DNA of 63,522 nucleotides, counting the filler, from Platydemus manokwari (lineage: Eukaryota), in assembly GCA_037951405.1 (NCBI GenBank). It is 6 parts of 6 records of this genome, joined end to end, with 100 filler letters (N's around TTAATTAATTAA, not from the genome) between each part and the next. Parts side by side here need not be neighbours in the genome. Positions count along the whole stretch, not along the records: positions 35,118 to 44,413 come from JBBMOY011270206.1; positions 44,514 to 53,649 come from JBBMOY011294650.1; 4 more parts are not named here. One strand, 5' to 3'. The position numbers and the translations under genes were made by a program. Positions 16,660 to 50,425 of this stretch are shown here, piece by piece. Under the pieces are notes generated by a model that saw only the letters and a program-made list of their open reading frames with translations, had not been told where the DNA came from and ran no database searches. Numbering within the stretch: position 1 is the stretch's first letter; every line of letters begins with the position of its first letter.

Positions 16660-16900
16660 TAATACATCGAATCAAAATGTGATACACAAATTACACGCAG
16701 ATCTCAAATATAAATGCTGATGTAAAGATTTCCAACTGCCAGTTGAAAACCAAGTTTTATGTTATTGTTTTATATTGATTTGTGGGTTATTTTTGAGTTT
16801 TACGACTATTTTGATACGTACTGGCTGGCACCTTTTAGTTAAATACACATTTCAAGCTTCGATTCTTTTGATCCCCAAGACAATGTATTTCGAATAAACA
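16660..16900. repeat. Degenerate dispersed repeat, copy 2; related to 4830-5090
   Basis: Same collinear blocks as the copy at 4830-5090. Confidence 0.65.
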
Positions 16901-19252: not shown

Positions 19253-21199
19253 TGGATTTATGATTTGTTTTAATGAAATGAATTAATAAATTTTAAAATT
19301 GTTTTATGATCTATCAATTAAAACAAATAAATGATTTTTTGTTTAAATATTAAAAAAATTATTAGACATCATTATTGGAAATATTAAAAGAATTCCAAAA
19401 TAACAGCGCTACTCTCAAATATAATATCAATCCCATATATCTCTCATGTCAATCCATGAATGAAATCTGATTTTCATTTTCACTCCCAATTTGAATGATT
19501 TGAAAATTATGATTTTTTCTTGTCAATCTATACGAAATCGACTGCTTTTCTGCATCTTTTAGTTTTATCAATACATATATGATTACTCATGTCACTTTAT
19601 AATTTTGTTGGAGAAATAGGAATGACTGCACTTGTGAGGAAAATTTAAAAGAACAAATTTAATAATAATTTTAAAATATATAATACATTTTACATCTTAG
19701 TCATTTATTTAAAATTTAATATTATATATAATACGCTTAGTTAAGATTTGCTAATAAAATAAGCTCTCTGGAAAAATATTTTTATTTGATTTAAAAATGT
19801 TTAACTTGTTTTGAATAATAAAATTTACGAAAGTCTTCTGAAAGAATTCTTCTAATGAATCACAAATTTTAAGCGACGTAGGTATCAGTAACATTATTAT
19901 CGTTGACATATGAATACAATAATATAATTCATATTTAACAGAATGATTAAATAATGGTCAAGCAAAACGTTTTTAGGCTGCAGAAGTAATCTACAAGAAC
20001 CTACATATGCAGCATCGGAAAATGTATAATGAAGTAAACTAGAATCACTTTTTAAATATTGATGATAAAATAAAGAACATGGAAATCAATTTGATTGACA
20101 CTATATATCTCTGGGATCATTTGGATTTAGGGATGAGAGATCTAGATCGAGAATAATCCAACGAAACTAATTGAATATGCCAGATAATGTCAATAACGTG
20201 TTTATCTAGGTGATTGTTATTAGCTTTAAACATTTGTATTTTATCTATGTGTCGGATTTTGGGGCTCATCAATTTTATCCAACAAATGAGCTTGATTAAG
20301 GCTAATCTAATGTAAATTCAAATGTACCATCTCGATGTATCGGTATATTTAACAAATAAATCAAAAGACAAAGATTTTTATATAGAATAATCCACCATTG
20401 AAATCAAAACAAAGTGTACAATTATTCTAATATTTTACAAAAATTAAAAAATTAAATAAATTTAATTAATTATCGGACACACACATTTTATATTACAATT
20501 ATCCAAACGAAATATTTTAACTCCAATGATTTTATGGTTGAGAGTGAAAATTCCCGATATATATAGGAATATTTTAAATTTAGAGATTGAAAAATATATA
20601 TCAAACAATCAACGTTCGTTAATTCGAACTTTAGATATTTGTCTTCCTTTTTATAATACCAAGTACTACCAAAGATTCCATAATCGATTTTTATGGGTTC
20701 TTCTAAGCTTGTTACTCCTGCTACGCTATTGTCGGATAATCCAAGTCAGTTTCTTTTCTTAGAATTCCTGATTTCAGGTTTTCTCTTGACGAAGTTTTAT
20801 GTCGAGATTTTCATGAGCGAAAATTTCTAGTTTTTGCAATCTATTTATACTATTTTTGAAGTGGAAATTCTACTTAAGAAACTTAAAATATTTTTATTTT
20901 TCAAATTTGATTTAAAAATTAATTTTATTTTTTATTAAAATTCATTCGATGTATTTTATGAATTTGTTGGGTTTTGGAAAATAACTTTATTTTGTTTAGG
21001 AGATATGACTCCGTATTCATTTTTGTGTATGAACTTTTTATGGTTACCATGTAAATATTCTGTGTATATTCGTAGTAATTTTTATTATTAATAATACCTT
21101 TTTATCTTATTTATTTTTCTATCTGGAGAAATTTCTTAAATATTTATTATAATAAAATAAAACTAAAATTTAAATAACTTTGAAAAGTAAAAGTTATAA

Positions 21200-22317
21200 T
21201 TATAGAACCGATTATTGAAAATATAATTAAACCCGAAAATTAACCTATATTTTAAATCCCGTAATTAAAAAATACCTAAATATTCAAATTACCCCTATAA
21301 AATAAATAACCCTTATTTAAATTGGTTAGAAATTGGCTGGCAACTAAAATAAACATCAATATAAATAAATCCCTTTTGTTAAAAAAATAATAAACACCGT
21401 TTTCCACCCGCATATTAAAATGACAACCCGTATTAAATAAAAATTCATTCAAAATAAATTAAAAAGAACCCGCATTCTAACCAAAATTCAGTCCAAATAA
21501 AGACCCGTATAAATAGGCCTTTAAAATTAATAGTCTTGCCCGAAGCTGACAGAAACCAGCAGCATAGTGTGCCCGTCATTAAAAATCAACTATTCAAATT
21601 CTTTGCCAAAGAAAGCCAAAAGCCAATTTCCCTTGTATCAATCATATGCCCAGTTCATCCGGAAGATCAATTTAAATATTGATATTCGAACTGATTGATG
21701 GAATACCGAAGATTAAGGAGTTAACCGTAAGATACGATTCTTGTAAAATCATTATCAATTTAAATTTGAATCGCATATTCTTCCTATTTATTGGGTTAAT
21801 CCCAACCATCTTGAATAATCAGTTCTGCTCCTCTTGGGAGCATTGTTAACCAGAACTTTTGTCCAGAATTGTAAATCTCTGTCCGTTTCAGTGTATACAA
21901 GTATTGTTCATATTTAATCATAAATCGTTGTAAAAAAGTAGTAATTCATAGCCATAATTGTAATATAAAAGTAGTAATTTATATTGTAATTTATATTGCC
22001 CTACTTATCATTTCATTGTTCGTAAAGAATCATTGTATTGTCAATTCACCACCTTTTGAGAAGGGTGTAAGGAGGAAAATAATAGTAATAATAAATTGAG
22101 ACTGATCAATAAGAAAGCAATATCAGTGAGCCGTTCATCCGGTCTTCATATGATGATTGATATGATCAAGGCGAAGGAAGATCATACAAAAATAGGTTTA
22201 GTAGATACCTGGGGTTATAAGAACTCTGTGAGACTGATTAAACTTTGATATTGCCCAAAGAAAATTTAAATATCATAAATAAAAAAATTGAAAAGAGACT
22301 GACCCCAAAATCTTACA
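21200..22317 (+). mobile_element. Diverged solo/3' LTR remnant related to the 3' part of the giant LTR at 45100-46105 (left edge approximate)
   Basis: CGTATAAATAG TATA block (~21506, as at ~45278). AATAGGTTTAGTAGATACCTGGGGTTATAAGAACTCTGTGAGACTGATTAA matches the MITE-free 45778-46022 sequence. Three GAGACTGA boxes. Ends CCCAAAATCTTACA (compare CCCAAAACGCAAACA) with no PBS after it. Confidence 0.6.
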
Positions 22318-24270: not shown

Positions 24271-25302
24271 TATGAAAATAGCCACAAACAATCCCATCAA
24301 TATAATGATTATCGTAAAATTCGATTCTCATTACGATTAAGAAATAAAATATTGAAATGTAAAAGTGAATCTTTTAGTAACGTTGAAGCTAATAAATCTG
24401 ACTTTCATTATGATAATGTTAAATTACAAAAGGAATTTTCTAAAAAATTGATTGGTAAAAATGATTTTAAGCGTAAATCAATCAAATGGAAGCAGAAAAA
24501 GAAAACTGCACAATTAATAGGCAACGGTAAGAAAAATATTCTATGCAAAATTTGCCATATCGTTTTACATTCAACGAAATCTTATGAAATTCATAAATGT
24601 CGGCATTTCAAAAAGCTCATATTCCAATGTAAAGATTGCCAGAAAACATTTAAAAATAATTTCTCTCTCATTACTCATATCAAATCATATCATCTCAAGA
24701 TTTCTCCTAAACGACAACAATGTCAGATTTGTGGTAAATTAGTATTGAACCTAGATATTCACATACGACACCATAACAATAAACGATTCCGTTGCGAAAT
24801 ATGTGACAAACGATTCATTACGAATACGTATTATTTGGAACATTTATCAATTCATAACAATATACGCTGTTTCCAATGCCAAATTTGCCAAACAAATTTT
24901 AATCGAAAATGGAATTATCAAATCCATTTGGAAAATCACGAGAGAAGAAAAGATAAAAATGGAAAATATTTACCGTTAAAACCTCGAGGAAAAGGCCATG
25001 TGAAATATAAAGAAAATAAGATTTTATCCACAAGAGAAAATTTAGTGGAAAAGTGGAAAATTGTGGAAAAAAATTCAAGAAGCTCTGATACATCGAATCT
25101 AGGAAGTGGAATTATTTTAGAAGATGAAATATTGATGACGATTCATGGCTGTTTATGGGAAAATCGTGATGAGATGAAAGATAATTCAAATATGCTCGAT
25201 TCAGATAATGAAACATGGTCAAATGTTTTATTGAGTTCAAGAAGTTGCGATACATCTGATTTGGAATATTTTTGCCATTTTATGCTTCAGTTTAATTGTT
25301 GA
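24271..25302 (+). CDS. C2H2 zinc-finger protein, terminal exon (five fingers)
   Basis: Fingers CKIC..HKCRH, CKDC..HIKSYH, CQIC..HIRHH, CEIC..HLSIH and CQIC..HLENH. The frame is open back to a TTTTAG acceptor at 24270. Upstream exon(s) not located. Confidence 0.9.
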   Translation, partial: YENSHKQSHQYNDYRKIRFSLRLRNKILKCKSESFSNVEANKSDFHYDNVKLQKEFSKKLIGKNDFKRKSIKWKQKKKTAQLIGNGKKNILCKICHIVLHSTKSYEIHKCRHFKKLIFQCKDCQKTFKNNFSLITHIKSYHLKISPKRQQCQICGKLVLNLDIHIRHHNNKRFRCEICDKRFITNTYYLEHLSIHNNIRCFQCQICQTNFNRKWNYQIHLENHERRKDKNGKYLPLKPRGKGHVKYKENKILSTRENLVEKWKIVEKNSRSSDTSNLGSGIILEDEILMTIHGCLWENRDEMKDNSNMLDSDNETWSNVLLSSRSCDTSDLEYFCHFMLQFNC

Positions 25303-27854: not shown

Positions 27855-30800
27855 TGTTTTTGCTTGGATTGATTATTTATAGATATATCGATTATAATAA
27901 TAATCTTTATTCTCTGAATGAGTTTGTAGATTAATAACTCAATATACTTCTATTTGTTACTCCGGTAACACGCAAGAACTTGGCTAATTTGTAATTACTG
28001 TTCGTCCTTGCAATATAACGTGCATTATAATCTTTACAGCTACATTAGCACCGCAATGTTTACAAATTTTTTCATAAAGCAGCATTCTTTCATTTTCTGT
28101 TTCTTCATGAAATGGTACACAACACCACGTGTTGATCCTTTGTGTAATTTCATATCCACTCTTTCTATAATATTTAGTAAATACGATTTTCTATGGTTAT
28201 TTTACATTTACTTTGGTTTACCAAATAATCTCATACTTAACACACCCATAAGCTTGAAGTTACATTTTTGGTTTATTTATCTTTTCCAGAGATAATTCAG
28301 GGACCTTTTATTTCAACCAAATAGAAGTCATTGAATTATTGTTAAAGTAGGGTAGATCAAAAATCAATCAAAAGGGTTACAATAACCAAGTAAATAACCT
28401 TTAAAAGGGTCGATACACTAGGAACCGATATCCACTTGTGCCGTCAGCCAATCAGATTCTTTCTAATATTTATCCATATCTAGAAGCTAAGAATCGACAG
28501 ACACATACCTACAAATTGCAGCAAGCTCAAATATCCGCCAATGGCATGAGAGATGCGAGGAAAATTTCAAGTAGACCGACCTATGAACATATTCAGCAAA
28601 TGGAAAACGAAGATCCGTGACATCAACCAGACACACCAGATAGATCTATAAAAGAGGTTCAGTTCCATGAATAACTGCCAGTCTTTTTTGTTGGAAACAG
28701 TGCGTGTTGGTATCTTTTTGTGAGTTTTAGTAATCACTTTTTTTGATTACTTTCTATTATGTTTTTGACTTTCGGGCGCTAATCCCATCTTTTATGATTA
28801 ACTATTGAGAGTTTGTAAAAAGATTTACTAGTAGTTATTGAGATTTCGATTGCCATATTTTGAGTAATACAGTTTTCACATATAACTGTTGGTTAATACA
28901 CACAATAGAAATAGGATTCAAGCGACCAGATATCAAAATCGTCAAATTAGACACCCATTCAGATATATCCGAATAAAATATGAAAATTATTTAAACAAGT
29001 GCTAAAAATAGTAACAAAATTTAAAATATGGGCATTAAAAAATTAAAATAATGCATGAACAATATCGAATATAAGATTACTTATTCTGAAATTGTTTCTC
29101 ATGAACTTCAGACTCGAAATACAAGATCGGAAATTGTTTATTGGGTTTTTCCTCCCGTTTTTCAAAACTCTTTAATCAATATATTTAGATAATTTAATAA
29201 AAAAAATAATATGAAAATCCGTGTGAAATATTTCGCAATGGAGTTTAACCACATGAAAATACGTGATATTTGAAATACGACGACTAAGCTTTTTCTGTGA
29301 ATTATGAATTCATAGATATTCTATTTTCTGATTAGTAAAACAAAATAATCACGGAATTTGATATCCATTAACCAAAATGAGGGAATCTGAATGTCTGATG
29401 TAATAAAAGTAAATTCCGTCAATTGGAAAAATACTACAAACAATATTGTATAATATAAATAAGTTTATATATAATCTCTGCTCCTATCGATTGAAGATAT
29501 TTTATTTCTAGTAATAGCACTCATATATTTAATGCAAATCACTGGAGACCCATTAGAGATTGTTTACGCGTTATTTTTACTGAAAACACATCTATTGAAA
29601 GGGTCCGAATAGTCATTAGAACTAACGTGAAATTTTTTCTAATTTTATGTGAATTATAGCTGATTGCAACACAAATGAAGTTGAGATGACCGAGGGATAA
29701 AATGTCATGTACTATCTCTATGATTCAATAAATATCTACAAGCATGCACAAGAGCATATTCTTCATTATTTAAATTATTTTTACATTATTCATTCACCCA
29801 ACCCGTTCGCTTATTCACATTGTAAATGATAATAATACTGAATAGAGATGAAATCTCACAAAAGGAAAAGGATTTTGCACCTGAGAGCCCTTATTTTAGC
29901 ACTTAAAACATTTTCATGCCTGCGCAGCCATACAGACATAGCAACCAATCAATCACATTTGACTTAAATGAAAAATTTTAATTCGAAAAACGAACATAAT
30001 CATATGATAACACTCACGTAGGGATTGACCAATCCCGAGCACACAAAATCAATAAATTTAATAAGATCTTGAGAAATAAAAGATCGAAATTAAAACGTGA
30101 TACATGAATTGTACAAAAATCTCAAGGATAAATACTAATGTAAAGATGACCAACAGCCATTTTGAATTCAAGTTTTATGTTGTTGTTCTATATTGGTATA
30201 TGAAGTTTTTATTGAGCTTCAGAGTCCTTTTGGGTACGTATGGATTAGTGAAATACAGATTGCAATTTTCAATTCTTTTGAAGCCCAATAATAATAATAA
30301 TAACAATAATATTCGTAATAAAAATGCCAGTGAAAATAATAATAGTGCTTTAACAATCTCAGATATTTATAAACAGATAAGATTAGTAAAACATATCTCC
30401 CAAGTAAAAATATAATTTCTCATATTACAGATGAATCTAATCAAAAAAATATTCTTAAAAAATCTTAAATAGATATTCCAATACTAAATTCCAAACAACT
30501 GATACAAATTTTATTAAAATTATTAGTAATATTCATTATAAATACGAAATATAATTATAAATATTTATAAAATAGATGTTTTATCTGAAAATAGTTATTT
30601 ACCTTAACCTTTCAGAAGCAATTCTATAATAAATGTTGAAAATTATGACAAGCATCTTTATATTATATATTAGTTCATTTTTTCAAAGTGAAATTAAAAA
30701 AGGTTCAAAGATAAAACCCGTTATTATATGACGAAACATATTGAAACGAAACATAAATAAAATTTACAACTCCAATTAATGAAATAAAAATCTTTGAAAG

Positions 30801-35117: not shown

Positions 35118-35194
35118 AAGTTTCATCAAACCATCTTTTGCGCAACAAAAATGATCCTTTCCTTGATCGAATTGTAACGTGTGACGAGAAATGG
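35118..35194 (+). mobile_element. mariner transposase fragment (cecropia/Hsmar1-like)
   Basis: VSSNHLLRNKNDPFLDRIVTCDEKW contains the first catalytic Asp motif IVTCDEKW. Truncated by the gap on the left and unrelated sequence on the right. Confidence 0.9.
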
Positions 35195-35679
35195 CGACGT
35201 TCAGATAAGTGCTTTGTCTAAAATCAGTATAAATACCGATACCAAATTCAGTAGAATCGCCTTACAGCGCTACAGTTAATCAATCACACGAATAATCTGA
35301 AGCGATTTGCAACGCAAAATTTATCATGAGTAATTCATTCTTGTTAATTAACCATTCCATAGTTATATCTGCAATCCATTCACGAACTTGTCAGTTACTA
35401 TAACTCTTCTCTGTCGAAACTCTTATCGGGTCTGAGTCTGTGTCCGGGCTATTAGGCGGCACCGACAATACCCATCATCTTTAGGGATAGGTATCGAACC
35501 TGCTCTTCTGGAAACTCTTGTAAATTACTATTTTCAACAAGTTATTCAGCTCGTATATCTGTTATATATCTCAATAAACATTATTATATACGTTGTGTTT
35601 TTGTTTTATTCTGTAATTGTCATAAGTGGTATATAAGTGCTAGTAGAAGTGCTAGTATCCGCAATCCTTTGGAGTCAGA

Positions 35680-36746
35680 TTGCTTAAAACCTCTCAATCC
35701 TCGAGATACAAAATCTCCACAAGTAGTGTAAATTAATTGTGATATAGTAGGACTGCTACCATTAACAAGGAACGGAAATAAATTCATATTAGTCTTTTGT
35801 GGCTATATTACTAAATGGCCTGAATCATATCCAATACCAGATCACACAGCGAATACAATAGCGAATACAATATGTAGAAGAAATTATATTCCAATTCGGA
35901 ATACCGAAAAAGGTACTTACGGATAGATAAACGGAATTTATGAGTAAAACCCTTACAGAAATTAATAATTATTTACAAATTACGAAACCAAACACATCAC
36001 CATACCACCCGCAAACAGATGGTTTAATAGAACGGTTTAATGGAACTTTATTAAATATGATATCATCATACGTAAATACAGCACAAAACGACTGGGATGT
36101 ACATATACCATCATGCCTTTTTGCATACCGAATTGCAGTACATGAAACTACAGGGTATACACCCTTTTAGCTTATGTATCTTCGAGACAGTAATTTGCCA
36201 GTCGATATAATAATAGAACCAAAAATATCACAATACATAAACATCGAGGATTACGCGGTATTAATGAAAGAAAGACTCTCGGAAGCATGGCAAAGAGCAA
36301 ATCTCAATATTAAATATTGACAAGAACAATTAAAAGAATAATATGATAAAAATCGAAAAAACCATTCAATTCAAGTAGGAGACAAAGTTATGATAGAGAA
36401 TCGAATATGTAAAAAGGGGATATCACCACAATTAATACCACCATATAAGGGACTATATATAGTAGAAAAAGTGACGGATACCAACTTATTAGTAAGATCA
36501 AGAGGAAAAAATAATGCTGATCCAATATGGGTTCACGCACAGCAATGTAAAAGATATGATGAATATGAAAATGAAACGCTAAACAAAGCAACACAGATAA
36601 GATCAATAGAAACAGAAGAAAATGAAATCATACCATCAACAAGTAAACAAGGATCAACCAGTCATAGATTTCCACTCAGATCACACCTTGATGATGATTA
36701 CCTTATTGAATATGTTAACAATAGCAAATTGTCCCATTTATACTAA
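35680..36746 (+). pseudogene. Ty3/Gypsy integrase (rve core plus GPY/F-type C-terminal domain), disrupted
   Basis: CDIVGLLPLTRNGNKFILVF...TKWPESYPIPDHTANTIA; FGIPKKVLTDR; TSPYHPQTDGLIERFNGTLLNMI; WDVHIPSCLFAYRIAVHETTGYTPF; QVGDKVMI...LIPPYKGLYIV...VHAQQCKRY. Frameshift and stops present. Confidence 0.95.
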
Positions 36747-36894
36747 ACCACCTATCATTAGACATAATTGGAGTTTAATTTGGGCAGAATTCTGGATAGT
36801 AATTCACGTACCTGAAAAGTTACCTTTTATAATAAAGTAAGACTATATACTTACAAAAGTAAACTTATTGATTCAGCAATAGTAACTAAGGAGC

Positions 36895-37538
36895 ATGTAT
36901 TCGAAAGTCATCACTGTAAAAATGGAACTTTGGTGCTATATTAAAAATAACGATATATTAATAGACAAAGACATCGTCGAGATTCAATTGAAATCACGTT
37001 TCACAGGAATAACAGTAGAGTCCGACAGACAATACATCTCAATTATAAAACCCGAAAGTAGATATTATATAATAAGAGCCAGGGTAATAGGAGAAAATAC
37101 GAAGGAAGCTAAACACTACATGATGTTAGAACATAAACCTAAGACAATGCATCTACTCCGGGACCCATGTGAAGAACCCATACGAGACACATCACTTGAA
37201 ATACAAAAAGAACTAGACACGAAATAAAACCAGCAGAAAACTGTGATTGTCAAAACACTACAAGAAAAGGAATAACGAAAAGTAGAAATACTTCACCTAC
37301 TAAAACAACAATAACTAAAAAACTAAAACCAATAATGGGAAAGATATCACCACAATTATGGTCACACATTAAGCAATCTAACAAAAATAACATAGACCAA
37401 ACTCAACTAATACCACATTATAACCAGAGGATCCGAAACGAACAAAATAATGAAATAATACTATTATATTCTACGCTATCAATAGAAAAACTGGAAATGA
37501 TAAATAGAGCGGAAGTAATGATTGAGCTGCCTCGATGA
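36895..37538 (+). pseudogene. Accessory ORF0 remnant of the retroelement, unknown function
   Basis: ORF pieces 36895-37227 and 37335-37538 with the same A-rich coding bias as the integrase. Beta-strand-like pattern VEIQLKSRFTGITVESDRQYISII. Confidence 0.5.
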
Positions 37539-37791
37539 TACTAATGGCTATAACCACACTATTTATGGTAATGGTAATCGGTAAATGTAAATAAAAGAGG
37601 GATTGTACAGACAGTAGGACCTACTTTTACAATAATAGGTCATATAAAATGACAACGTTATGGCAATCATAGTCAGAGAATATATCACCAATGATACAAC
37701 TATAAATCATATTAATATTTATCATATCATTTTTTATAACACAGCATCAACATAACTTGAACACAATTTAACTCTTTTCATGCAGATTAAA

Positions 37792-39265
37792 ATGAGAAGA
37801 AACGAGGTTTCAAGCTATCTATCTACCTACACTAGTAAAGCAACTTCCTATACCTACTCTACCGAAGCACCAGTTGGCTTACAATATCACGAGTATATGG
37901 CAATAAAAGCAAGAAAAGGTACTAGATATGTGTCCTTCGTAAAATCAATTACAACTGCCAAACAAACTCAAATATAGCGGACGAGTTAGTAGACACATTC
38001 AAGCTGCTCTACTAACCTATACAAATGTACAAATATTGATACAGCTAATGCCAGCTCTACAAAATCAAAAACACTACAACACCTTAATCCTAACAACTAC
38101 CAATGGGCCACTCACGGTCTACATCGCTGGAGTAGGAGAACCAATCTATCTCTCACCGCACACCAGCTTAGAACTTGGAAATTATGACGAAAGGATCGAA
38201 CGAATAACCCTTCTAAGTCAGGATGTACCAACAGCAGTGGTACTAGTAATGATCAAGAAGGAACAAGAACCTAAAGCGTATCCAATAACTAGAGGATTTG
38301 AAGAAATCCCTCTCAAAACACTCGATGCATATGAATCACACCAGAAGAAGAGCAACTCAATACATTATACATAGCGGCATTCTATGTGGATACCTTGGAA
38401 ATAATCACGGAAAAAATTCCAATAACCACTATTTGCTCCATCTCAATTCCGATCAAACGGAGCAACTATTAATCAATTCATTAATTACTCCTCGAAATTA
38501 CGTCAGACACTACAGAAAATATGACCACAAATTGGATGAAGAAAAACTAATAAATCAATCGGACCAAGCAGAGGCATATGAAAAAATCAAGGAAATAATT
38601 GATCAAAAAGTCTTTATAGGCTTTCAATTCGCGGACATAATAAAAGCCCTAGCGTTCCCTACATACTGTATTATGGGAATTAAGGATCTGTCAACAGAAG
38701 AACTGCTAACAAGATACAAGGTGTATGATAAAACACCATATAAACTTAAAAGAGTAGAACAACAAATACTGACAAACCTATTGAAGAAAATCCATGAATT
38801 AGAAACCAACAACCGAGTGGAACAAATAAAGGAAATCCATGACCTTATAAAACTCAGTGGAGACCAGCAGTCAACACTACTCCACTAATATCGGATTATG
38901 AATCAATCGACTTGGATACTGGAGAAATAGAAACCGAAATAGAAGAAGGAAATTCAGAACAAATGTCAAAAAAGGGCAAGTATGGGCCAAGCCTAACCTC
39001 TGGAATACCAACTGAACCCTTAAGTACAGATATCAATACTGATATCCCACAGCTAAGAGGAGAAAGGGTGCCTTATTTGCCACCAACAATTCTCCAAACA
39101 TTAATCGTAGATAATAAGGGATGGTACATTACGGCCATCCTCTATACGTGTGAAGACGACCTGGATGAGTTATGTCTCGACTTTAGTAATGAGGGCTTGG
39201 AACAAGCAAGATCCGGACAACAAGCCTTCGGACGAAAAGCAGTGAAACAAAGAGTCAGAGAATAA
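37792..39265 (+). pseudogene. Accessory ORF-A: beta-rich domain + DEDDh/REX4-like exonuclease fold + acidic linker + WxITAIxYT motif
   Basis: Frameshifted pieces read YIAAFYVDTLEI...TICSISI / LLINSLITPRNYVRHYR...LDEEKLINQSDQAEAYEKIKEIIDQKVFIGFQFADIIKALAFPTYCIMGIKDLS. This follows the REX4/ISG20 pattern (V.P...V.DYR....I....L.......V...V..ll..kilVGH....D..aL.......I.DT). Confidence 0.7.
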
Positions 39266-39593
39266 TGATAATGAGTAACGACAATGTAAATTAATTAACT
39301 TTTGTGATTATTTTTATGACAACTTTGTGTGATCATTCTTATAATTTATGTCTTCATTCTTATTACTTATGTCTTAGTGTTGTAATTTAAATCAAAAAAC
39401 TTATTACGCCTTAAGGATGTTGAAATTAAAGCAAATAACCAGAGCATAACAAAAATAAAGCCTAAAATATATAAAAACCAATCATAATAAATTAAAAAGT
39501 CTATTAACGTAATATATAACATACATTATATTGAATACATTATACAATATGTTATCAACCTTAAATGTTTAATCTTTATTTTCAGAAAATGAA

Positions 39594-41097
39594 ATGATTC
39601 AACGTCATCCACAACTCATTGGGACACACCCAACCAAATATTTCACAATTCCAAAGTTATACTGTAGATACGGTTATAACAATAATTTCAATGCGTAAAT
39701 GGAACAAAAAACCTGCCACAGCCAAACCTTTAAGGACCAAACACATCTTCCTAACAATATGAAATTCCCAAATAGAGGCCACAGAGCCCTAGAGACTATA
39801 TTTATCAATAATAGAAGAACTACTTCTCTAACACAATTATTTAACGATATCAATTATGCCACCGGAGTAGACGTAGTGTGCATACACACCACGGTAGTTC
39901 AAATATCAATCGTTATTCCTGGTCTTGAGGAAGTGATCTTCCTCCGAAGACATCATGCATTAGACATCACACAATGATGAAAGATTACTGAAAGGAGGAG
40001 TTTCCTTCTCAGTCCTGCCAGTAAATCTAATCCTGGAATCTAGTCGCTACGACATTGCACCGATGAAAAGTACAGTCACCTTCATACTAACTTAACCTAC
40101 CTGGGTATCAGAGAAGATATTCTTAATAGGCATTCCTTCATTCGAAAGAATCTGCCTCAAGATAAAATAAGAAGTAATATAAGAATCCTGGCCACTCAAA
40201 TAATGGAAACCATCAAAATCACAAGCAGTAAAGATACTGACAAGACAGTATGCGCTGTCACCGTTTTAACCTAAGAAGGATTAGTTGTACTCAATACAAT
40301 GGTTAAGCCTCGACACTATATCAGACACTGGAGAAATCAGGGAACGGATCAATTAACAGAAAAGTACATCATAGATGCTTGGAATGAATAAGCACTCGAG
40401 AGATACATTATATCCGTTCTGGACAAAAGAATTGTGATAGGGCTCAACGTAAACGAGTAATTGGAAGCTCTAAATTACTCTACTCACAGGCTTCTTGGCA
40501 TAAGAGACATAAGCAAATTCAAATACTGAGTCAAGTGGATGAGCCTTCAAAGGAATCCAGCGGATAACAAAATTAAAGGAAAAACTCATCCCAGATCATC
40601 GAGTTAATATGAAAAGAATAATCAGCTACCAAAAAGCGTACGATATACTAGAAATATGTCGCATAATGGAATATGGATGGCAAAATCATCCCATACTTCC
40701 TCGAGAAGAAACCAATGTAAATGAGCAGCTGGAAATAGAAAACGACAATAACCCAAAAGCAGCACCAGATCTAACAAAACAATTCAAGCCAAGCTACAAA
40801 GTCTTCGAAATAATTCCAGAGGAAGATGAACCAGAGGACTCAGAAGGGGAATACGTCTCATCAACAGAAGACGAAGAAGATGGAGAAAATGAAGACTACC
40901 CGATGACCGAACCAAGAGAGGAAACAAATCTCCCGCAGTTACCAACAATAATACCGCCAATGGTATTACTTAGCAGGGAACGATGGTTAATTACAGCCAT
41001 CCAGTACACTTAACCAGAAACGTGGGAACAATTTCTGCAAAGCTATACCAACCCCAAGCTGAGAAAATATGAAAACTATTTAATATCCTTCGTGTAA
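39594..41097 (+). pseudogene. Accessory ORF-B, full-length paralogue of ORF-A
   Basis: RILATQIMETI...TVCAVTVLT*EGLVVLNTMVKPRHYIRHWR...SVLDKRIVIGLNVNE*LEALNYSTHRLLGIRDIS, then an acidic tract, then LPQLPTIIPPMVLLSRERWLITAIQYT (ORF-A: VPYLPPTILQTLIVDNKGWYITAILYT). In-frame stops and frameshifts. Confidence 0.75.
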
Positions 41098-41483
41098 TCA
41101 TAAACTATAAACTTGAACTTCATTATTACTGTGAGATATTTGAGATGAATTAAATTTCAATTTAATTCAAAACTATTTTAATTTACAATTATTCAAATTT
41201 TATTCAGATTTAATTTAATTTTATAAAAAATTAAGTTAATATAAAATTGAAAATATTTGTTTAAATATTTGGATTTAAAATAGAATTGATTGTGTCTTGA
41301 CATTTTTGGTTTGATTTTAGTTTGTGGTTTCTAAAATAGTATGAGCAGCTAACAATTACTATAAAATTGATGTCATTAGAACGTGTCTCATCTTGAATCT
41401 TGTATAAATGTGTATCTTTCATGCCTGAAAAATGGCACTGAAAAAGTTTTATGTAAAACAAATACCAGGACAATTAATTATTT

Positions 41484-41514
41484 CTCGGGACGAGAGAACT
41501 TTAAGAGTGGCATA
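41484..41514 (+). other. Polypurine-tract / pre-LTR motif
   Basis: CTCGGGACGAGAGAACTTTAAGAGTGGCATA directly before TGT matches the usual Ty3/Gypsy TCGGGACGA...TTAAG-purine-TGT junction. Confidence 0.7.
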
Positions 41515-41700
41515 TGTTTGAAATAAACAGTAGTAATCAAATAATAGTAAATAGTAAATAATAATCATAAACAAATAATTAATTAAGCACCAGAATTTTT
41601 CATCCAGAATCTTCAGAATTTCCTAAAATAACCCTAAAAATAAATAAATAACAAAAACAATGAGAGATCATCTCAAAAACAATGGAGAAAAATCAATTAT

Positions 41701-41820
41701 CCAATAGGAATAATACCCTTAAAATCGCAACCAATAAGTAAATAACCAATATTCTGACACCCAATCAAAATCGAGCTCTTAAAACATAAAAGTGGCCCTA
41801 AACTCATTAAGTCTCATTAT
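41701..41820 (+). promoter_or_regulatory. CCAAT-box promoter for the LTR-embedded ORF
   Basis: CCAAT at 41701, 41731, 41746 and 41761; CATAAAAG at 41785; TCATT initiator-like sites downstream. Confidence 0.55.
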
Positions 41821-41901
41821 TTTACTGGAAGAATTCTACTCGTAGACAATCAAGTAGTTATTGTTCATTTTTCAATGTTGTTAATTTTATATTCCCAAGA
41901 G

Positions 41902-43620
41902 ATGGAACCCTCGACGACAATAATACAGTTTTTTCCGCGCCGATTCTATCTTGGTATAGAATCAGAAAAAAGAAAGACCCCATTCGGAATTGAAAGAAGG
42001 ATTTTTGAAAAAATAAATGAGCTACCCGACAAGTTAAAGTCAGCTTCACAACAACTACGAACAACCGTAGTCATACATTCCCAAGAACAAGCCAGTTTTC
42101 AGTTGGGAGATATAACGCAGAATCTAATCTTCAATCCGAGCATGATTAAAATTCACTGCTCCCAATCTGATATTGCAATCAAATGTGTGAATGAGCTGAT
42201 TGAGTTGGAGACATTCTCATCAGCATCCATCCATCTTATCCCACTAAGAAATCAACATGCAGAGTTTCAAAAAATGACAATCAGAGCCAAGGAAATACCC
42301 TACACGATCATGGTAGAATATACAAGGCCAGAGCCGGAGGAGTTAGGAGAGTTCGGAGAATCAAAGCCATTCACAATCAATAGTCCGAGTCAATTGCCAT
42401 TCAGTGAGCCTAAAAATAGGATGTCATTCAAGAGAAAACCTGACGGTGTAAATCGTTATGAGGAGAGATTTTTATTGAATTTCCTTGATGTCAAATACGC
42501 AGTCAATTACAATTAAAAGGAATATCCGACCTGGATTAGCATAAGAGATCAGATGAGGAGAATAATTTTAGAACAGACTTGCTTTTCGAGGAGAGAAATA
42601 AAGCATTACTGCGTCAACAAGAACGGATTTGGAGAATATGTAGTCAGAGGAGCAACAGATTCTGAAGAGTTAAGCAAACAAGCAATCGAATTATTGAGGG
42701 GGAAGATCATTGTTGATATGATCTTAAGAAAGAGATGAAAGCACTGTCAATCTTGACTGAGGAAATAATGGGCGCAAGAGACATCAAAGGAGTCAGAATA
42801 ATAAAGAAAATCATGAAGGAGAAAAATGCTTTCCAGAGTGAAAAATTGAAAGATATTTATGCGGCAATTACCAACAAAATAATGGCACAATACGGAGAAA
42901 TGACAGATGAGATTCAGGCAACCATCAGCATTTATAACGAAGCCATCGATCATTGGATAGATGACATAGAAGATTGTGAAGATCAAAGATACCAAGAAAA
43001 AGTGGAAGCAGAAGGAGAAAAGATGCTGTCAATATATTCGAATGGGCTGAAAAAAACTATTCAACAAAAGGAACCATAATTCGAACCAAAGAGAAAATCT
43101 AGAAATTAAAATCCGCGGAAGAAATTTATCTCAGCATGAGAAAAGACAAATTTTGGCAAAAGCGTATGGGGGAGTACAGAGAACTCAGAGAAAATCAGAA
43201 GTCTGAGAAGGTACAGATAATTAACCATGATATTTTTTCAATTTATGTTGATGAAAACAACGTCAATGAGGAGTCATGACCATGCAGCAGGAGTACTATC
43301 TGACCGATGAGGACCAAATATTTTTAGAGCAGCTCTGGGTAGATGCCAAGGCTGAAGATCAACTGCTGATGAATGAGGAGCGAGATTTTGAGCGACTCCA
43401 GAAAGATTTAGAGGAATTCATCGAACAAGAGAAAAACAAAAAGATTGTTGAGAATTCTAATTTGTATCCTGATGCTGAGGAATTCCTACCAGGGCGGCCA
43501 TGGGAAGTCGTCAACGTAAAATCAATGAAAAAGTAACTCAAAAGGAAGCTGAAGGAACCATCAGAGCCAGATGCAAAGCATCAAAAGCATGAGGACATGC
43601 TTTCTGAGACCCCCCAGTAG
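41902..43620 (+). pseudogene. Accessory ORF-C inside the LTR: beta-rich domain paralogous to ORF-A/B, helical/coiled-coil region, PAM2-like motif
   Basis: ORF pieces 41902-42516, 42517-42738 (same frame after one TAA), 42735-43079 and 43276-43620. SNLYPDAEEFLPG at 43456-43494. Could be two genes rather than one. Confidence 0.7.
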
Positions 43621-44127
43621 TGTTGGGGATTTGAGAAAACAGCTCTATCCAATGTATTAATTCAATATCAATACAATGTAACAATCCAACATAACAATTG
43701 TGACTCGAACATCAAACATTAATTATGCATGGCCTAGCTGTATGGGCATTTGTTATTTTGTCATTTTCCATAAATGTAAATGTATCAATGTTGTAACAAT
43801 TTTAGGGCTTGATTATTCAAGCAGTTATTATTGTACCAATTTTTATGAATAGCTTGATTAATCAAGCAATGCATATTTTATTGTTACCTTTTTATTGTTG
43901 GGATCCCCACTCATCACAAAAATACAGAATACACTCATCACAAACTCACAAATTATAACTCATATACCCTTTACATAGCACACACACCCAATAGGAAATC
44001 CATTACATAATGCATGTACATAACAAATAAGCCTTTAGCTATGGAAGCAGATATCCAAAAGCAGACCCATCATTTATTCCAATCCAAAGTCAATCCAAAT
44101 TCAAAATGTCAACAACATATTATCCCA

Positions 44128-44290
44128 ATATTCAATTATCGACTCATGACTGCTTATCCAATTTTATTATTGCTTGTCATAACAATTTATTATAACAATC
44201 TATGACTGCTTTTTCAATTTTATTATTGCTTGACAATGTATTATGTCCAATTTTATTATTGTTTGTTATGATAATTTATTATATCTTCAT
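44128..44290 (+). repeat. Short degenerate tandem repeat (CAATTTTATTATTGCTTG core, three copies)
   Basis: Core visible three times between 44140 and 44270. Confidence 0.7.
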
Positions 44291-45791
44291 AATGTATTAT
44301 TTATTATTGTGAGGGTTATGTATGAATAAAGGAATGAAGGGAGAATGCGGGTGATGAGGGATAACGACAATGAATATAAAATAGGATGATAAAAGAAAAT
44401 ATTAAGTTATAAANNNNNNNNNNNNNNNNNNNNNNNNNNNNNNNNNNNNNNNNNNNNTTAATTAATTAANNNNNNNNNNNNNNNNNNNNNNNNNNNNNNN
44501 NNNNNNNNNNNNNCAAAACCATCGACAGAAATCAAAGATAAGTACATGGAACAAATAAGTACTGATGTAGTGCATTTAATAACTCGATAATCTCATCAAC
44601 AATAACCTAGAAATAGACAGATCCTATTATTACATTTTTCACACAAGTAAAAAAACTACTATTTATTGATCTGTTGGGGATTCGAGAAAATAATGTATCA
44701 ATTCAAGTCATTCTGCACATCTATTATCGTCTCAATCGATTGATTCGGAAAAAAAACATTCTAATTGGAAATTTCTGAGAAACATTGTGAATTAATTATT
44801 TATAACATTAAACATTTATTTTAGCTTGTCTGTACAAGCATTCAATTTATAATTATATGGATTTTTATTTTTGGTTTAGTTGTATAAAGTGTCCATTTTT
44901 GTTTGGCTTGATTAAGCAAGCATTTGTAAATGTAACAATTTTATTTTGGTCTTGATAATTCAAGCATATCAACTTGTAATATTTTTTATCTTTTAATTAA
45001 AAGTTTTGTTTGTTGATTAAGCTTCTGGATAAATTAATTGAAAAGAAATAATAATAACTATAATAATAAACACGCTAATAATAATAGTCATTATAGATAA
45101 ATGATGAAACCTTGAAGATTTTTGTGAGACATAAATTTAATATGTTATATTATTTATATAGGCAATCTTTAGGAGAATTTTTTATTTTTAAGAATAAATG
45201 GTAAATCTCTTGAGAATTAAGATAAATGCATCCATTTTCTTCATTTAATCGTGACGAATAAAGCCGTCTTCCAAATCGTATAAATAGTGGGTTGAAAACC
45301 TCATAATTTCGCCCTTATTTGAAACCACTAGCTTGTAGTGCGTACGTATCCTATCCATATTTGCCAGAAGCATTCTTGTCAATCAATTGTTCAATTGTAT
45401 ATGCCAATAAACGTGAGTTCGATAATTATTTAACAAACTGACCGTTACTATAAACTTCGTGAATATCTTCTATTATAGAGTTGTGTCTCACATCCTTGAA
45501 GGTGGTTTTGCTAAAAGAGCGTGCAGTTTATTAATCCTGTACTTGTCGTATAAATTGTTCATTTTTATCAAACCATTTTATTATTACTGTAGTAATTTAT
45601 AATCGGTGTCAATTGTATATGTTGTGTCAATATACGTTTCATAAAACCCAAAATTGTTGATTGTTGATTAAATTGAGACTGATTAAGTTGAGACTGATTG
45701 CTTCAAAATCATTAGATCATTGTTCCCGTTTGGTATTGTCACAATATAATATTGAACACGAGGTGAAAATATAATTAATAAGGGTTCAATA

Positions 45792-45978
45792 CAGTCAAAC
45801 CTGTTTTTGTGCGGTCATTTTTTATGTGCTTTTTTGTGCCTCTACCGCATAAAAAAATTTCTTTACTATGCTGTGAAAAAGTATTTCTTATAGCTATTTA
45901 TGAAGTTTTTGAATATTTTTTTTGTGTGCTGTTTTTTTTCTGAAGTCCCTATCTACCGCACAAAAACAAGTTTCACTG
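45792..45978. mobile_element. 187-bp Tc1/mariner-superfamily (pogo/Tigger-type) MITE inserted in the LTR
   Basis: TIRs CAGTCAAACCTGTTTTTGTGCGGT and ACCGCACAAAAACAAGTTTCACTG (22 of 24 matching), flanked by TA on both sides. Absent from the related LTR at 22.2 kb. Confidence 0.9.
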
Positions 45979-46107
45979 TAGTTCGTACCTAGGGCTTGAT
46001 CAGAACCACGAGAGACTGATTAATTCAACATTGATCTACAAAGAGTTAAAATGTCAGACTGATAAGAATAATAAAACAAAAACCAGCAAGCCCAAAACGC
46101 AAACAAC

Positions 46108-46652
46108 TGGTGCCCCGAGTGATGATGAAATTGTTATAAAAATTTGAAAACCCGAGTGAGGATAAAATTGGTTTGAACTTTGATAAAAGTTTGAAAGCAA
46201 ATAGTTAAGTAAAGTTTAAGGTCCCGAATGAGGATATAATTGTTTTTAAAAATTGTAAGATTTTCTAAGGTTAATAAATATACATCAACTGGTGACCGTA
46301 GTGATGAGAAATTTGGTTTAAAACTTGATAAAAGTTCGGAAGCCTAAATAGTTAGAAGACAAAGTCGTTTTCAAATTTGAGGAATAAATTGGTTAAAAAT
46401 TTTGAAGACGTGAATAATTAGTAAAAATTGAAGACCCAGGTGAGGACAAAATAATAGTAATGCACAACAAGTGGTATCTAGGTGAGGTCAAATTTACTGT
46501 AAAATAAAAGCGAGGAACAAATTGTTTATAAGACAACAACTGATGCTAAAAAGTGAAATTAAACATCAACTGGTAAACCCGAGTTATAGTTTCAAAGATA
46601 CATCAACTGGTGCAATAGTAAGAATTGAAATAAATGTTAACTAGTGCCCGAA
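46108..46652 (+). repeat. Primer-binding site (elongator tRNA-Met type) followed by ~9 degenerate copies
   Basis: TGGTGCCCCGAGTGATGAT at 46108. Further copies at 46151, 46221, 46290, 46433, 46472, 46541, 46571, 46608 and 46642. Consensus TGGTGCCCCGAGTGAGGAT. Confidence 0.75.
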
Positions 46653-46760
46653 TAGCAAATTTTTAAATTGATATAATTGCGAGTTTAAAAATTGAGAGGT
46701 TAAAGTTAAAGATTGGTAAAATTGTGAAATTGGAAAAATAGTTAGAATATGAATAAAGTT

Positions 46761-46910
46761 GATAAAATTGAATTAAGCCATGGAGCTATTGATAAGTTTA
46801 ATCTGAGCCAAGGAGTTATTGATAAATTTGAATTGAGCCATGGAGCTATTGATAAGTTTAATTTGAGCCAAGGAGCTATTGATAAATTTGAATTAAGCCG
46901 AGGAGCTATT
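46761..46910 (+). repeat. 30-bp minisatellite, five copies, alternating A/B units, inside ORF 46749-47006
   Basis: GATAAATTTGAATTGAGCCATGGAGCTATT alternates with GATAAGTTTAATTTGAGCCAAGGAGCTATT. Translates DKIELSHGAI DKFNLSQGVI DKFELSHGAI DKFNLSQGAI DKFELSRGAI. Confidence 0.9.
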
Positions 46911-47699: not shown

Positions 47700-49300
47700 G
47701 TTTTGGCAACTAACAGTATTCATGTCCGTGTCGAAGCCTATTGTATTTTTTTAACCCCAGCAAAGTGTGGACTTGTTGGCCTGAATGGAATACGGAGTGA
47801 AATTGAGTAGCATCAGGTTGTTGAGCGATTGATGTGCAAAGATCTACAGCTACAGTGACATGTTGAAGTTTTTCAAAGGCTTCTGCGATAGATGTGAAGC
47901 TGAAAAATAGTTAACCAACTTTCGCTGTTTTTTCATTGTAGACCAAAGATTGCAGAAGGGCTTGAGAAAAAATATATCTCCTCTAGCAATATGATTATTT
48001 TATCTGCACAGGTCAGAGCTGAGAATTCACTTTTATGGAGTGTAATCTTAAGAAGATCTGGTGAGAAAGTCGATTGAAAGACAGAATAGTGCCATTAATA
48101 AATGACATCTTCACCTGACACCTCGGTAAATTAGTATTAGAGATATTTTTAATTGGCCACAATAGTAGTTTGATTTAAAGTCCTCGCATAAGGCTTTGAC
48201 CAGTTGGATATAGTGAGAGTTACAGCCCATTTTGTCGAGAGTTTGATAAACGACATCATGAGAATGCTTTTGAAAGTCTATCCAGCAGATGTGTAAGTCT
48301 TTGTAATGTTGAGGTGCATATTCTGAAAGTGTAAATAAATAGGCATAAATGTCAGAGGCCTTCATTGCATTCTGATTCGGAGAGAGAAAATTTCTAGCCT
48401 CGATCCAGTTGACAAGTCGGTGATCGAGGATAGTTGCAAAGATTCAGTATTATGGCTCCTTGAAATATTTGCCAGTATGAGGATACAATGTAAGAGGTTG
48501 GCTGTTTCACGAGAAGGTTGGTTTTGCATTCTGTCCATTGATTCGGTATTGTCTTTCTTTGAAGGGTTTTGGTTAATAAAGCTAGTAGAAAAAATGTTTG
48601 GGATCGATAATCTTCCAGTCCATGTATTTGATGTCGTTTGAAGGTGTTGCAGATCTCCGATGTTGTGATTTCTCTGGGCTTGAATTAAGCCAAGACATAG
48701 TGTGGAGATAACTCTGATGGAAATGGAGAGGGAGTCGAAGTTATGCATTGCACTATGATTTGAAACAATATTGGTAGAGATACTGGTTGTGAGTAGGGAT
48801 AAATATTTCTGATTATATTCTTGAGCTCAGTGAGACATTAGCTCCAAAATTTGAAATTTGAGGATGAATTATTATTTAAGAGGAGTACTAATGGTTTGAC
48901 AAGTTTCTTTGCTGGAGATCTCAAGAGATCGCCGATAGATAACGCTGTTTTGTTAGTAGACTGTATTCGTTTGAATTCCGGAGAGTCGACCTCGAGCAAT
49001 TTGATGATTTCAAGCAGAAAGAGTGTGTTGCTTGACCAGTGCTTGGATGGCTGACTTAATGTCTTTCGGAGGAGTATTATGTTTGCTATAGTCCGACTGA
49101 TGTAAGATTAGGATATTGTCCAGCTTGTGTTGTAGGGGTTCCTGTGGTTTCCATTCCAATGAAAAGTCATAAGACGATTTTACAATATTACAGTTTTTGG
49201 AATGGGAATTAGAGTTAGAAGTCCTTGAAATCCCGATTGTTGGTGGCGACTGCATACCGCAGATTGATTATTGGATTCGGACAGTTTTGCAAGGGGATGA
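47700..49300 (-). mobile_element. Decayed non-LTR retrotransposon reverse transcriptase (R2/NeSL-like early clades likely); edges approximate
   Basis: IPNQWTECKTNLLVK; LHICWIDFQKHSHDVVYQTLDKMG..HYIQLVKALCED...ILIYRGVR* (RT 'DF.KAFDSV.H' and 'RGVRQG' regions); SALTCADK (YADD remnant). Many frameshifts. Confidence 0.8.
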
Positions 49301-50425
49301 TCCGGAAGAAAAGTGATAAATGACAATATTGTCAGGCCCGTCATATAAGACAATAGAAGAATTAATCAAACATATCTACACCAGGAAATCCTGAAAAATA
49401 AACCGTAAGCCCAGACATAATAGATTTAGATAGTGAGGTCACCATGACACAACTATCTGCGCAAATACACACTTGAATGACCACCACCCGATCAAAATAT
49501 TGTGCCAAAAATAAAATGTGTGCATATAGAAAAAATAACAATTGTAAGTGGACAGTGGCATTATCACTAAATTTATCGAAAAAAAATGAGAATCGCAACC
49601 ACAAGAACACATAAAAAGTTGAAAGAAAACCAGTATCTAAAAAAGAAATATATGATTTTTGAAAATAATGATGGGAACTTTGGAATAATGGAAAGAAATT
49701 AACAGGAATAGAGAGAAAAAAGACTAAAGCGATAACAGAGGAGTAAAACTGATAATAAAATGAATAGATTAAAAATACTGACACCGGTCTCATGTTTTTT
49801 TAGTCAATCCCCGACTTATGTTACGGTAGCATGCCAGACAATCAAACACCTCATTCCTCATCCCAACCTTCTCATTCTCCATCAGACTCAGCCAAGATTT
49901 CCAATCAAAATGAAACAACCTGTATTAACAAACCGATTTTAATTTTTATGAAAATAAATTTTAGTCTTTTGTTATTTATTCTGTGTTCCGATGGGCCATT
50001 AATATCAGGGAGGATTAGTAGAATATTGGAAAAAATATTACTTATCTAAAAGATCTCGAATAAAATTTTTTGTTTATTAGACTATAGTGTAAACACAATG
50101 TTTATTATTTAATGCTGTATATGTTTATCAGAAAACTATACAATGTTTACATATCGTAATTTAGATAAAATGGAACAAGTGATTAAAAATAAAAAATATA
50201 AAAATGCTCAATTATCGATGCATTAAATTTAGAGGATGCGTTAAATCAAATTGTTGAACAAAAATTATATCTGACCATAATAAAAAAATTGTGCAAACAG
50301 AACTTGAAATACTTTCAAACTTATCATGGTTTCACATTTTAATGATTTTTATAAACAGATTTTATAAAAATTAACAAAGGCTAATATTGAATATGAAATT
50401 TATTTACAATAAAACAACGTTTAAT

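Follow-up and report, generated by a model that had tools for sequence, protein, structure and literature searches.

The interval 41515-46105 of the window (the whole stretch of 63,522 nucleotides of Platydemus manokwari DNA that was analysed) proved to be a chimera of two contigs from different retrotransposon copies, joined across an artificial spacer, and not a single 4.6-kb LTR. In our main reading, which we hold at about even chances, the interval joins contigs of different copies, the contig before the spacer (contig A; contig B follows it) is the decayed 3' half of a likely Ty3/gypsy element, and the broken reading frame ORF-C probably lay within a long composite U3 region of that element. 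The initial annotation had described a complete gene inside a 4.6-kb LTR; this is wrong as stated, since the interval is chimeric and the gene is decayed, with in-frame stops and frame changes.

A chimeric interval and two related LTRs

Positions 44414-44513 are an artificial 100-nt contig spacer (44N-TTAATTAATTAA-44N); each of its six frames contains stops, and the window has four more spacers of identical sequence. Because of this spacer, the TGTTTG start and ORF-C lie on one contig, and the TATA box, the LTR end and the PBS on another; each contig carries one element end only. Segments 43621-43896 of contig A and 44672-44998 of contig B are diverged paralogues (187 of 267 aligned bases, about 70% identity over a block of about 0.3 kb), and the two contigs must therefore represent two copies, and not the halves of one LTR. 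The CCAAT promoter motifs, about 1.75 kb of coding-type DNA, AT-rich segment, TATA box, CAAACA end and PBS-like site of the initial annotation were all found where it had placed them, but not on one contig.

The LTRs used for comparison are the following:

44672..46105, + strand: contig-B LTR of 1434 nt, with TGTTGGGG start, TATA at 45279, AATAAA at 45406 and CAAACA end at 46100-46105
46108..46660, + strand: PBS-like sequence with a TGG start 2 nt after CAAACA, then several degenerate PBS-like repeats
20250..22317, + strand: related LTR of 2068 nt without ORF-C

The contig-B LTR, in which no frame of 60 or more residues was found, is probably the 5' LTR of a different copy from contig A. The PBS-like site at 46108 is presumably of the elongator Met tRNA type; no tRNA gene was found in the window. 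No gag follows the PBS in contig B, where decayed LINE-like frames come after the leader; the contig-B element is cut at that point. The LTR at 20250..22317 is probably a solo LTR. Its start matches the inverted LTR end at 13 of 16 positions, the unique best of 1111 TGT sites, and its U5 is similar to that of contig B (equalled in 0 of 200 shuffles); no TSD was found there. A start at 20800 was dropped in favour of 20250, which has the better inverted-end match, and a 98-aa frame inside this LTR is not distinctive, being equalled in 9 of 16 control stretches. The TATA box said to be common to both LTRs is indeed accompanied at 45279 by CGTATAAATAG, identical to the sequence at 21506, but 10 of 200 shuffles score equally. 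The distance from TATA to end is 809-826 nt in both bounded relatives, and ORF-C is absent from both (1434 and 2068 nt, the two LTRs compared), with no tblastx match in 20250..22317.

The contig-A element and its accessory reading frames

The following features could be assigned to contig A:

35700..36725, + strand: decayed integrase, end of pol (Pfam rve_3 E=5.6e-4, rve E=2.1e-3, both below the curated cut-offs)
36730..39265, + strand: accessory ORF-A, broken, with a C-terminal part paralogous to ORF-B
39586..41091, + strand: accessory ORF-B, broken, tandem paralogue of ORF-A
41481..41514, + strand: hairpin and PPT-like tract, purine-leaning, ending in TA before TGTTTG
41515..41520, + strand: candidate 3' LTR start TGTTTG, directly after the PPT-like tract
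41701..41820, + strand: promoter-like segment, by motifs only (four CCAAT at 41701-41765, CATAAAA at 41785, TCATT motifs near 41810)
41875..42738, + strand: ORF-C piece 1, 287 codons, internal stop at 42514
42735-43079, + strand: ORF-C piece 2, whose start overlaps the stop of piece 1 (ATGA)
43103-43279, + strand: ORF-C piece 2b
43276..43620, + strand: ORF-C piece 3, 114 codons, internal stop at 43534, ATGA overlap at its start
43598..43642, + strand: hairpin spanning TGTTGGGG and the stop of ORF-C; its left arm is C-rich and no PPT
43621..43896, + strand: U3-like block carrying two CTTGATWAWTCAAG palindromes and sharing homology with the start of the contig-B LTR
44375..44381, + strand: TATA-like box; contig A ends 39 nt further on

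The integrase frame has 4 stops in 279 codons and is followed by several non-pol ORFs; contig A contains no RT, RH or gag and is likely the 3' half, now decayed, of a retrotransposon of Ty3/gypsy type that carried several accessory ORFs. ORF-A and ORF-B matched each other in blastp searches of a small local database (E=1.6e-8 and 9e-5), and their profile showed weak matches to ISG20L2 (E=0.035) and ISG20 (E=0.28), so that the C-terminal part of ORF-A possibly has an ISG20/DEDDh exonuclease-like core. None of the BIR, ankyrin, BCL2 or env-type Pfam domains of Burro/GYPSM1 could be identified in the 17 frames scanned. The contig itself begins with mariner-like sequence, and a very high-depth repeat is located at 41008-41317.

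ORF-C is real coding DNA, but broken. It comprises about 1.75 kb of coding-type DNA (41875-43620) in four pieces, and its longest stop-free frame of 252 aa exceeds both the mean (96) and the maximum (186) of 500 shuffles. An intact reading frame is not present in this copy, which has two internal stops (42514 and 43534) and three frame changes (near 42735, 43080-43103 and 43276). The composition is A-skewed like the rest of the element (34-42% GC). No homologue of ORF-C was found in a set of 5.8 billion proteins (in which piece 2 was also searched separately), among 1.84 billion representatives, or in the ESM Atlas, PDB sequences and metagenome contigs; the best Pfam match (E 0.016) is below cut-off, and piece 2 gave one weak match to a PHROG of unknown function (E=0.0037). 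Single-sequence folding of piece 1 gave a pLDDT of 32; two putative RRM-like units in it are an idea formed by eye. DNA motif scans yielded 0 matches in one case, 8 chance matches without PPT or retroelement context in another, and 1 unrelated contig; viral contigs scanned for integrase showed 2 weak loci, and an Rfam search found nothing real. The segment before ORF-C shows no detectable relation to other U3s, either against shuffles or against real windows.

Candidate starts of the 3' LTR in contig A

Two positions compete as the start of the 3' LTR, one on each side of ORF-C. The TCGGGACGAG hairpin and PPT-like site, the sole one in the window, lies just before 41515 and about 400 nt after ORF-B, and we take it to resemble the pre-LTR ends of Ty3/gypsy elements. 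The tract has 9 of 15 purines before TG, as compared to 8 of 15 at 43621, and its hairpin is not significant (z=-0.88). The + strand of the interval has four occurrences of TGTTTG, the window as a whole 22, and the terminal match of TGTTTG with CAAACA on which the initial annotation had relied is near chance: over 16 nt, 41515 matches the inverted LTR end (46105) at only 7 positions, which 479 of 1111 TGT sites (43%) equal, while 43621 matches at 11 and 44672 at 10.

The second position is marked by TGTTGGGG, which adjoins the stop of ORF-C piece 3. The block after this stop is clearly related to the U3 of the PBS-bounded contig-B LTR (score 48 against 21.2+/-2.6, reached in 0 of 200 shuffles; best unrelated stretch 31 among 1090 real windows). 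The homology begins exactly at TGTTGGGG in both copies (43621 and 44672), and no homology between the contigs was detected upstream of it (16 against 17.8, equalled in 178 of 200 shuffles). A direct repeat beginning downstream of ORF-C had been named beforehand as the observation that would speak against an LTR-borne gene, and it is half borne out, because homology with contig B begins at TGTTGGGG after ORF-C. The hairpin at 43598-43642 has z=-2.6 in a trimmed stretch (3 of 200 shuffles) and z=-1.64 in a wider one; that it represents an LTR-LTR junction is speculation. The TATA-like box at 44375..44381 may be the main LTR promoter of the contig-A copy, from which R-U5 is missing. Inspection by eye suggested a MITE at about 43892-44373, which comparison did not establish.

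These observations give some room, at clearly less than even chances, to the explanation that ORF-C is the last internal accessory ORF, that TGTTGGGG (43621), or a position past the contig end, marks the true start of the 3' LTR, and that 41481-41514 is a relic or internal PPT of a shorter ancestor. The homology breakpoint lies exactly at TG, the inverted-repeat match is better at 43621, and the relatives of 1.4-2.1 kb are without ORF-C. The available part of PMC3601003 gives TGTTRNR as the consensus start of animal Metaviridae LTRs, which TGTTGGG fits and TGTTTGA does not, and elements with further ORFs placed after pol and ahead of the 3' LTR are described in the portions at hand of PMC6431247 and PMC5408684. 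On the other hand, a run of six C and no PPT precedes 43621, whereas the upstream PPT-TG junction looks intact and would be expected to prime; moreover, the contig-B end GCAAACA itself does not fit the consensus, and inverts to TGTTTG.

Other copies were surveyed in a public sequencing run (the matches listed comprise 6 of the 591 rows of loose ends and 8 of the 2942 pieces). Among the matches listed, high-depth relatives track contig A at least as far as 41441, and none extends past 41628. At least 10 contigs have loose ends at 43585, inside ORF-C and 36 nt before the junction at 43621, and thus match from before the junction, which argues against an LTR start there. Among the matches listed, other copies of ORF-C show about 80-88% match, about as diverged as the internal copies, and no contig bridges PPT and ORF-C in another copy. 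Mean contig depth is 121 in ORF-C, 153 and 181 in the lowest internal bins and 437 in the block after ORF-C; the rise of about 3.6-fold after ORF-C fits an internal ORF, with the proviso that run depth is not copy number and single positions range from 17 to more than 1000.

An old patchwork origin of contig A is rather improbable: the 3' LTR start of one element, part of another's accessory region and a nested B-type LTR would have come together, spread as a passenger or by segmental duplication, and never worked as an LTR cassette. Nested and truncated elements do occur throughout the window (the mariner-like start, the repeat at 41008-41317, the LINE-like frames), and the contig-B element is itself cut; yet the promoter-like segment, ORF-C and downstream block stand in functional order on one strand, the divergence of ORF-C copies is about that of internal copies, and neither a TSD nor a terminal repeat was seen flanking ORF-C.

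That ORF-C lay inside a composite U3 of contig A, in an LTR of about 3.7 kb, is evenly balanced in our estimate against all else. For it speak that the sole PPT-like site precedes ORF-C and no PPT precedes 43621, that ORF-C shares the composition of the element and roughly the divergence of its internal copies, and that contigs match from before the junction while high-depth relatives end by 41628. Against it stand the start of the homology at TGTTGGGG with better inverted-end matches there, the two bounded relatives without ORF-C, the weak PPT and non-significant hairpin, the depth of ORF-C below that of the lowest internal bins and the following block, and the lack, among the matches listed, of a contig that bridges PPT and ORF-C in another copy. 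The earlier proposal of a coding cassette between PPT and U3 block cannot be kept as drawn, but for contig A, where the U3-homologous block directly follows ORF-C with no PPT between, it is still the most economical reading of the sequence.

Under a composite U3, plus-strand synthesis would be primed at the PPT before 41515, so that the CCAAT promoter, ORF-C and the contig-B-type block with TATA near 44375 would be copied into both LTRs. The downstream block would supply enhancer palindromes and, at its TATA, the start of the genomic RNA; ORF-C would be transcribed from a separate promoter ahead of it, as in MMTV sag. The LTR length of about 3.7 kb follows if the TATA-to-end distance of the relatives is adopted. 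Such a composite would most likely have arisen when a short B-type LTR became joined to the ORF-C end and the unit was then amplified. The product may be an accessory protein that evolves fast, or else a set of three short proteins made by stop-restart, with a putative function in aiding the element in the host cell. Somewhat more tentatively, just short of even chances, we propose a planarian Ty3/gypsy lineage with composite LTRs of about 3.7 kb, formed by a short LTR behind the last accessory cassette with the upstream PPT kept, in which a promoter-driven orphan gene (possibly three ATGA-coupled ORFs) is duplicated at each insertion and left in solo LTRs.

Relation to known systems

If ORF-C was part of U3, retrotransposons, and not retroviruses alone, would be able to place a complete expression cassette in the LTR; there the cassette would survive LTR-LTR recombination and spread orphan genes through the genome. 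Capture of an LTR behind an accessory ORF would then suggest a growth route for the very long LTRs of giant planarian elements. If ORF-C was not part of U3, contig A is nothing unusual, a decayed element that carries extra ORFs, and the interval is a warning that concatenation spacers can produce false multi-kilobase LTRs.

The plant elements Ogre and Retrosat2 share multi-kilobase LTRs (1.9-6.5 kb; >3.2 kb) and orphan extra ORFs, but the descriptions place these ORFs internally or before gag-pol, and not in U3. Burro and GYPSM1 are giant gypsy-like planarian elements with accessory ORFs and decaying copies, as seen here in probably the same host group; the available text of their account reports no ORF inside LTRs (PMC6431247). 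Their ORF1 of about 5,000 aa, env between gag and pol, BIR/ankyrin/BCL2 motifs and length above 30 kb are features of their own, and the corresponding region lies outside the window. Bdelloid Juno and Vesta carry a DEDDy exonuclease ORF3 in addition to gag and pol, not placed in the LTR in the part of the description at hand (PMC5408684). They share with contig A a non-env accessory ORF after pol and a possible 3'-5' exonuclease fold, whereas contig A has two tandem paralogues with weak ISG20-like (DEDDh-type) similarity, plus ORF-C. The closest layout is that of MMTV sag, a superantigen ORF described within the LTR (PMC11998498, as far as available): a coding ORF inside the LTR of an LTR retroelement, as proposed for ORF-C. 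However, sag is an intact, functional gene whose presence in both LTRs is proven, whereas ORF-C is broken, without homologue, longer (about 1.75 kb) and part of an invertebrate retrotransposon, with a proposed place in the LTR. If the proposal is true, ORF-C would be a retrotransposon counterpart of MMTV sag beside short-LTR relatives that do not have it.

Contig structure of the interval 41515–46105

The initial annotation had placed a complete gene inside the U3 region of a 4.6-kb LTR, from TGTTTG at 41515 to CAAACA at 46105. The motifs it listed were found where stated, but the interval is split by a spacer (44414–44513) into two contigs, of which contig A (35118–44413) bears the PPT-like site, TGTTTG and the coding cassette ORF-C (about 1.75 kb), and contig B (44514–53649) bears TATA, CAAACA and the PBS. 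The window is AT-rich (25–27% GC outside elements), and its segments of 9–13 kb are linked by five identical 100-nt spacers with a palindromic core containing a stop codon in all six frames.

Spacers
13179, 25875, 35018, 44414 and 53650: each 44 N, TTAATTAATTAA, 44 N

Such spacers serve for contig concatenation or for marking gaps of unknown size, and findings that span one in this genome are suspect. A separate 128-N gap at 54800 resembles an ordinary scaffold gap.

Contigs A and B do not together make up a single LTR. Positions 43621–43896 of contig A (the B-type block) align with 44672–44998 of contig B (187/267 bases identical); the score is 101 versus 61±8 in 60 shuffles (maximum 81), and with stricter scoring 48 versus 21±3, with 0 of 200 shuffles as high and 31 for the best unrelated stretch among 1090 real windows. 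Within the window, a palindrome pair is confined to these blocks (4 sites; 7 strand matches versus 0.41 expected). Since 70% identity is too low for allelic overlap, the blocks represent different copies, and the single LTR as drawn is an assembly chimera. The pairing of TGTTTG with CAAACA as LTR ends also carries little weight, as 41515 matches the inverted end at 7 of 16 positions, a score equalled or exceeded by 479 of 1111 TGT sites. The corresponding values are 10 for 44672 (at least equalled by 30 sites) and 11 for 43621 (by five). An LTR start consensus is available in PMC3601003.

A start at 44672 gives a contig-B LTR of 1434 nt without any 60-aa frame; an inverted repeat lies within its U5 at 45790–45980 (tblastx). 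A related LTR on another part, the 22-kb relative, is bounded at 20250–22317, its start being the unique best of the 1111 sites (13/16); no TSD was found for it, and it lacks ORF-C. No gag follows the contig-B PBS, only a repeat-rich leader and then LINE-like remnants and PLOD. The leader (46108–46660) contains degenerate copies of the LTR-end/PBS motif (e.g. 46151, 46223, 46286, 46435, 46567, 46604, 46639), with a 30-nt tandem repeat beyond them (46759–46910). Past the truncated element, decayed non-LTR (LINE-like) reverse transcriptase frames were seen by eye on the minus strand (47700–49300), followed by the host gene PLOD (procollagen lysyl hydroxylase; 49900–53300, minus strand, many short introns), whose named matches of highest identity are from flatworms (65–70%). 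Together with the low GC content outside elements, this suggests that a planarian is the probable host. Elsewhere, the window holds an intact C2H2 zinc-finger ORF of 343 aa (24271–25302) and a dispersed 250-nt repeat (16630–16878 versus 30047–30288, 73% identity; partial third copy near 4830).

ORF-C and the element upstream

ORF-C is real coding-derived DNA. Its longest open frame is 252 aa versus a maximum of 186 among 500 shuffles, its pieces have 0–1 stops each in the coding frame versus 3–27 in the other two, and its composition equals that of the internal ORFs of the contig-A element. It is not a complete gene, being broken into four pieces by three frame changes and carrying two in-frame stops.

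Pieces of ORF-C
41875–42738: first piece, in-frame stop at 42514
42735–43079: second piece
43103–43279: third piece
43276–43620: last piece, in-frame stop at 43534

At two of its three frame changes a stop and a start overlap as ATGA, so native ORF-C may have consisted of three short ORFs. Searches of protein, profile, PDB-sequence and metagenome-contig libraries gave no homologue, and the predicted fold is unusable (pLDDT 32). Other copies in contigs of the public sequencing run X1, the only run with matches, show about 80–88% identity among the 8 of 2942 pieces listed, like internal copies; the window itself may derive from this run, in which case they would be copies within one genome and no independent support. 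Four CCAAT boxes precede ORF-C (12.7 per kb versus 2.7 window-wide) and, judged as motifs, are suggestive of a putative promoter, but seven more occur in 43621–44413 (8.8 per kb).

Upstream, contig A carries the decayed remains of an integrase (Pfam rve_3 at E=5.6e-4 and rve at E=2.1e-3) and, downstream of it, the tandem paralogous accessory ORFs ORF-A (37850–39265) and ORF-B (39586–41091). Both are weakly similar to ISG20-type exonucleases (ISG20L2, E=0.035; ISG20, E=0.28) and had no match in Pfam or in PDB searches with single sequences. The layout is gypsy-like with extra ORFs behind pol. A mariner-like transposase fragment was seen by eye at 35118–35200 (summed depth in its bin about 92,000, run X1), where 27-aa frames had no Pfam match. 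A very high-depth repeat (41008–41317; summed contig depth about 100,000, run X1) lies in the 3' untranslated region shortly before the PPT-like site.

Position of the LTR start

Plus-strand priming sets the start of an LTR, and the sole PPT-like hairpin and tract in the window, about 400 nt past ORF-B, precede 41515 and thus ORF-C; a composite U3 enclosing ORF-C is therefore the most economical model. We take this hairpin and tract to resemble Ty3/gypsy pre-LTR ends; the tract has only 9 purines in 15 and the hairpin is not significant. High-depth relatives in run X1 follow contig A as far as 41441 or beyond, and none is left by 41628.

The composite U3 would comprise, in order, PPT, TG, CCAAT promoter, ORF-C, the B-type block starting TGTTGGGG, and TATA near 44375, with R-U5 presumably lost at the end of contig A. 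From the TATA-to-end distances of its relatives (826 and 809 nt), the LTR would measure about 3.7 kb rather than 4.6. A small inverted-repeat element with CTCATCAC motifs at each end may occupy 43892–44373, within the U3-like region.

That ORF-C is instead internal, the PPT before 41515 being a relic, seems to us doubtful, although several observations favour it. Homology to contig B begins exactly at 43621, with none upstream (178/200 shuffles score as well there); 43621 is the better inverted-repeat match; and both the contig-B LTR and the 22-kb relative lack ORF-C. Depth also leans against duplication of ORF-C (mean 121, versus 437 for the following block and an internal median of 1081, minimum 153), albeit as a measure that is no copy number, and single positions in internal spacers and the U3-like block fall to 17–30. 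Against an internal ORF-C, 43621 is directly preceded by six C and no PPT; the run is unlikely to be a PPT decayed by point changes, and it makes up the left arm of a hairpin, with z=-2.6 for the trimmed stretch and -1.64 for the wider one. Moreover, the loose ends of ten run X1 contigs fall within ORF-C, at 43585 and thus 36 nt before 43621, and their upstream agreement is low (0.57); among the 6 of 591 loose-end rows listed, none falls at 43621 or 41515.

We propose that a short B-type LTR was joined behind ORF-C and the joined unit then amplified, which would account at once for the exact TG breakpoint, the absent PPT and the common junction. That contig A is a patchwork without function as an LTR cassette appears improbable. 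Of the LTR-embedded gene, then, the drawn feature is chimeric and its ORF decayed, and a cassette inside a composite LTR survives as an evenly balanced proposition.

Comparison with known systems

In narrow phrase searches, no report of an ORF inside a retrotransposon LTR was found among the matches consulted (for one phrase, the 25 listed of 2,299), which does not imply absence from print. The portions consulted of PMC8532177, PMC11410931 and PMC13238120 contain nothing on LTR structure, and those of bioRxiv 10.64898/2026.05.04.722472 and PMC13558583 are irrelevant to such ORFs. As far as the excerpts describe them, planarian Burro/GYPSM1 elements are giant and gypsy-like with accessory ORFs, and Ogre LTRs reach 1.9–6.5 kb (PMC6431247); figures or supplements of the Burro paper may already show ORFs in LTRs. 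Retrosat2 has an orphan ORF0 that precedes gag-pol, and its LTRs exceed 3.2 kb (PMC3485330, in part); MMTV sag is encoded in the LTR (PMC11998498, in part). Exonuclease ORF3s are present in rotifer elements (PMC5408684, in part), to which ORF-A and ORF-B, by their weak ISG20-type similarity, form a possible flatworm parallel.
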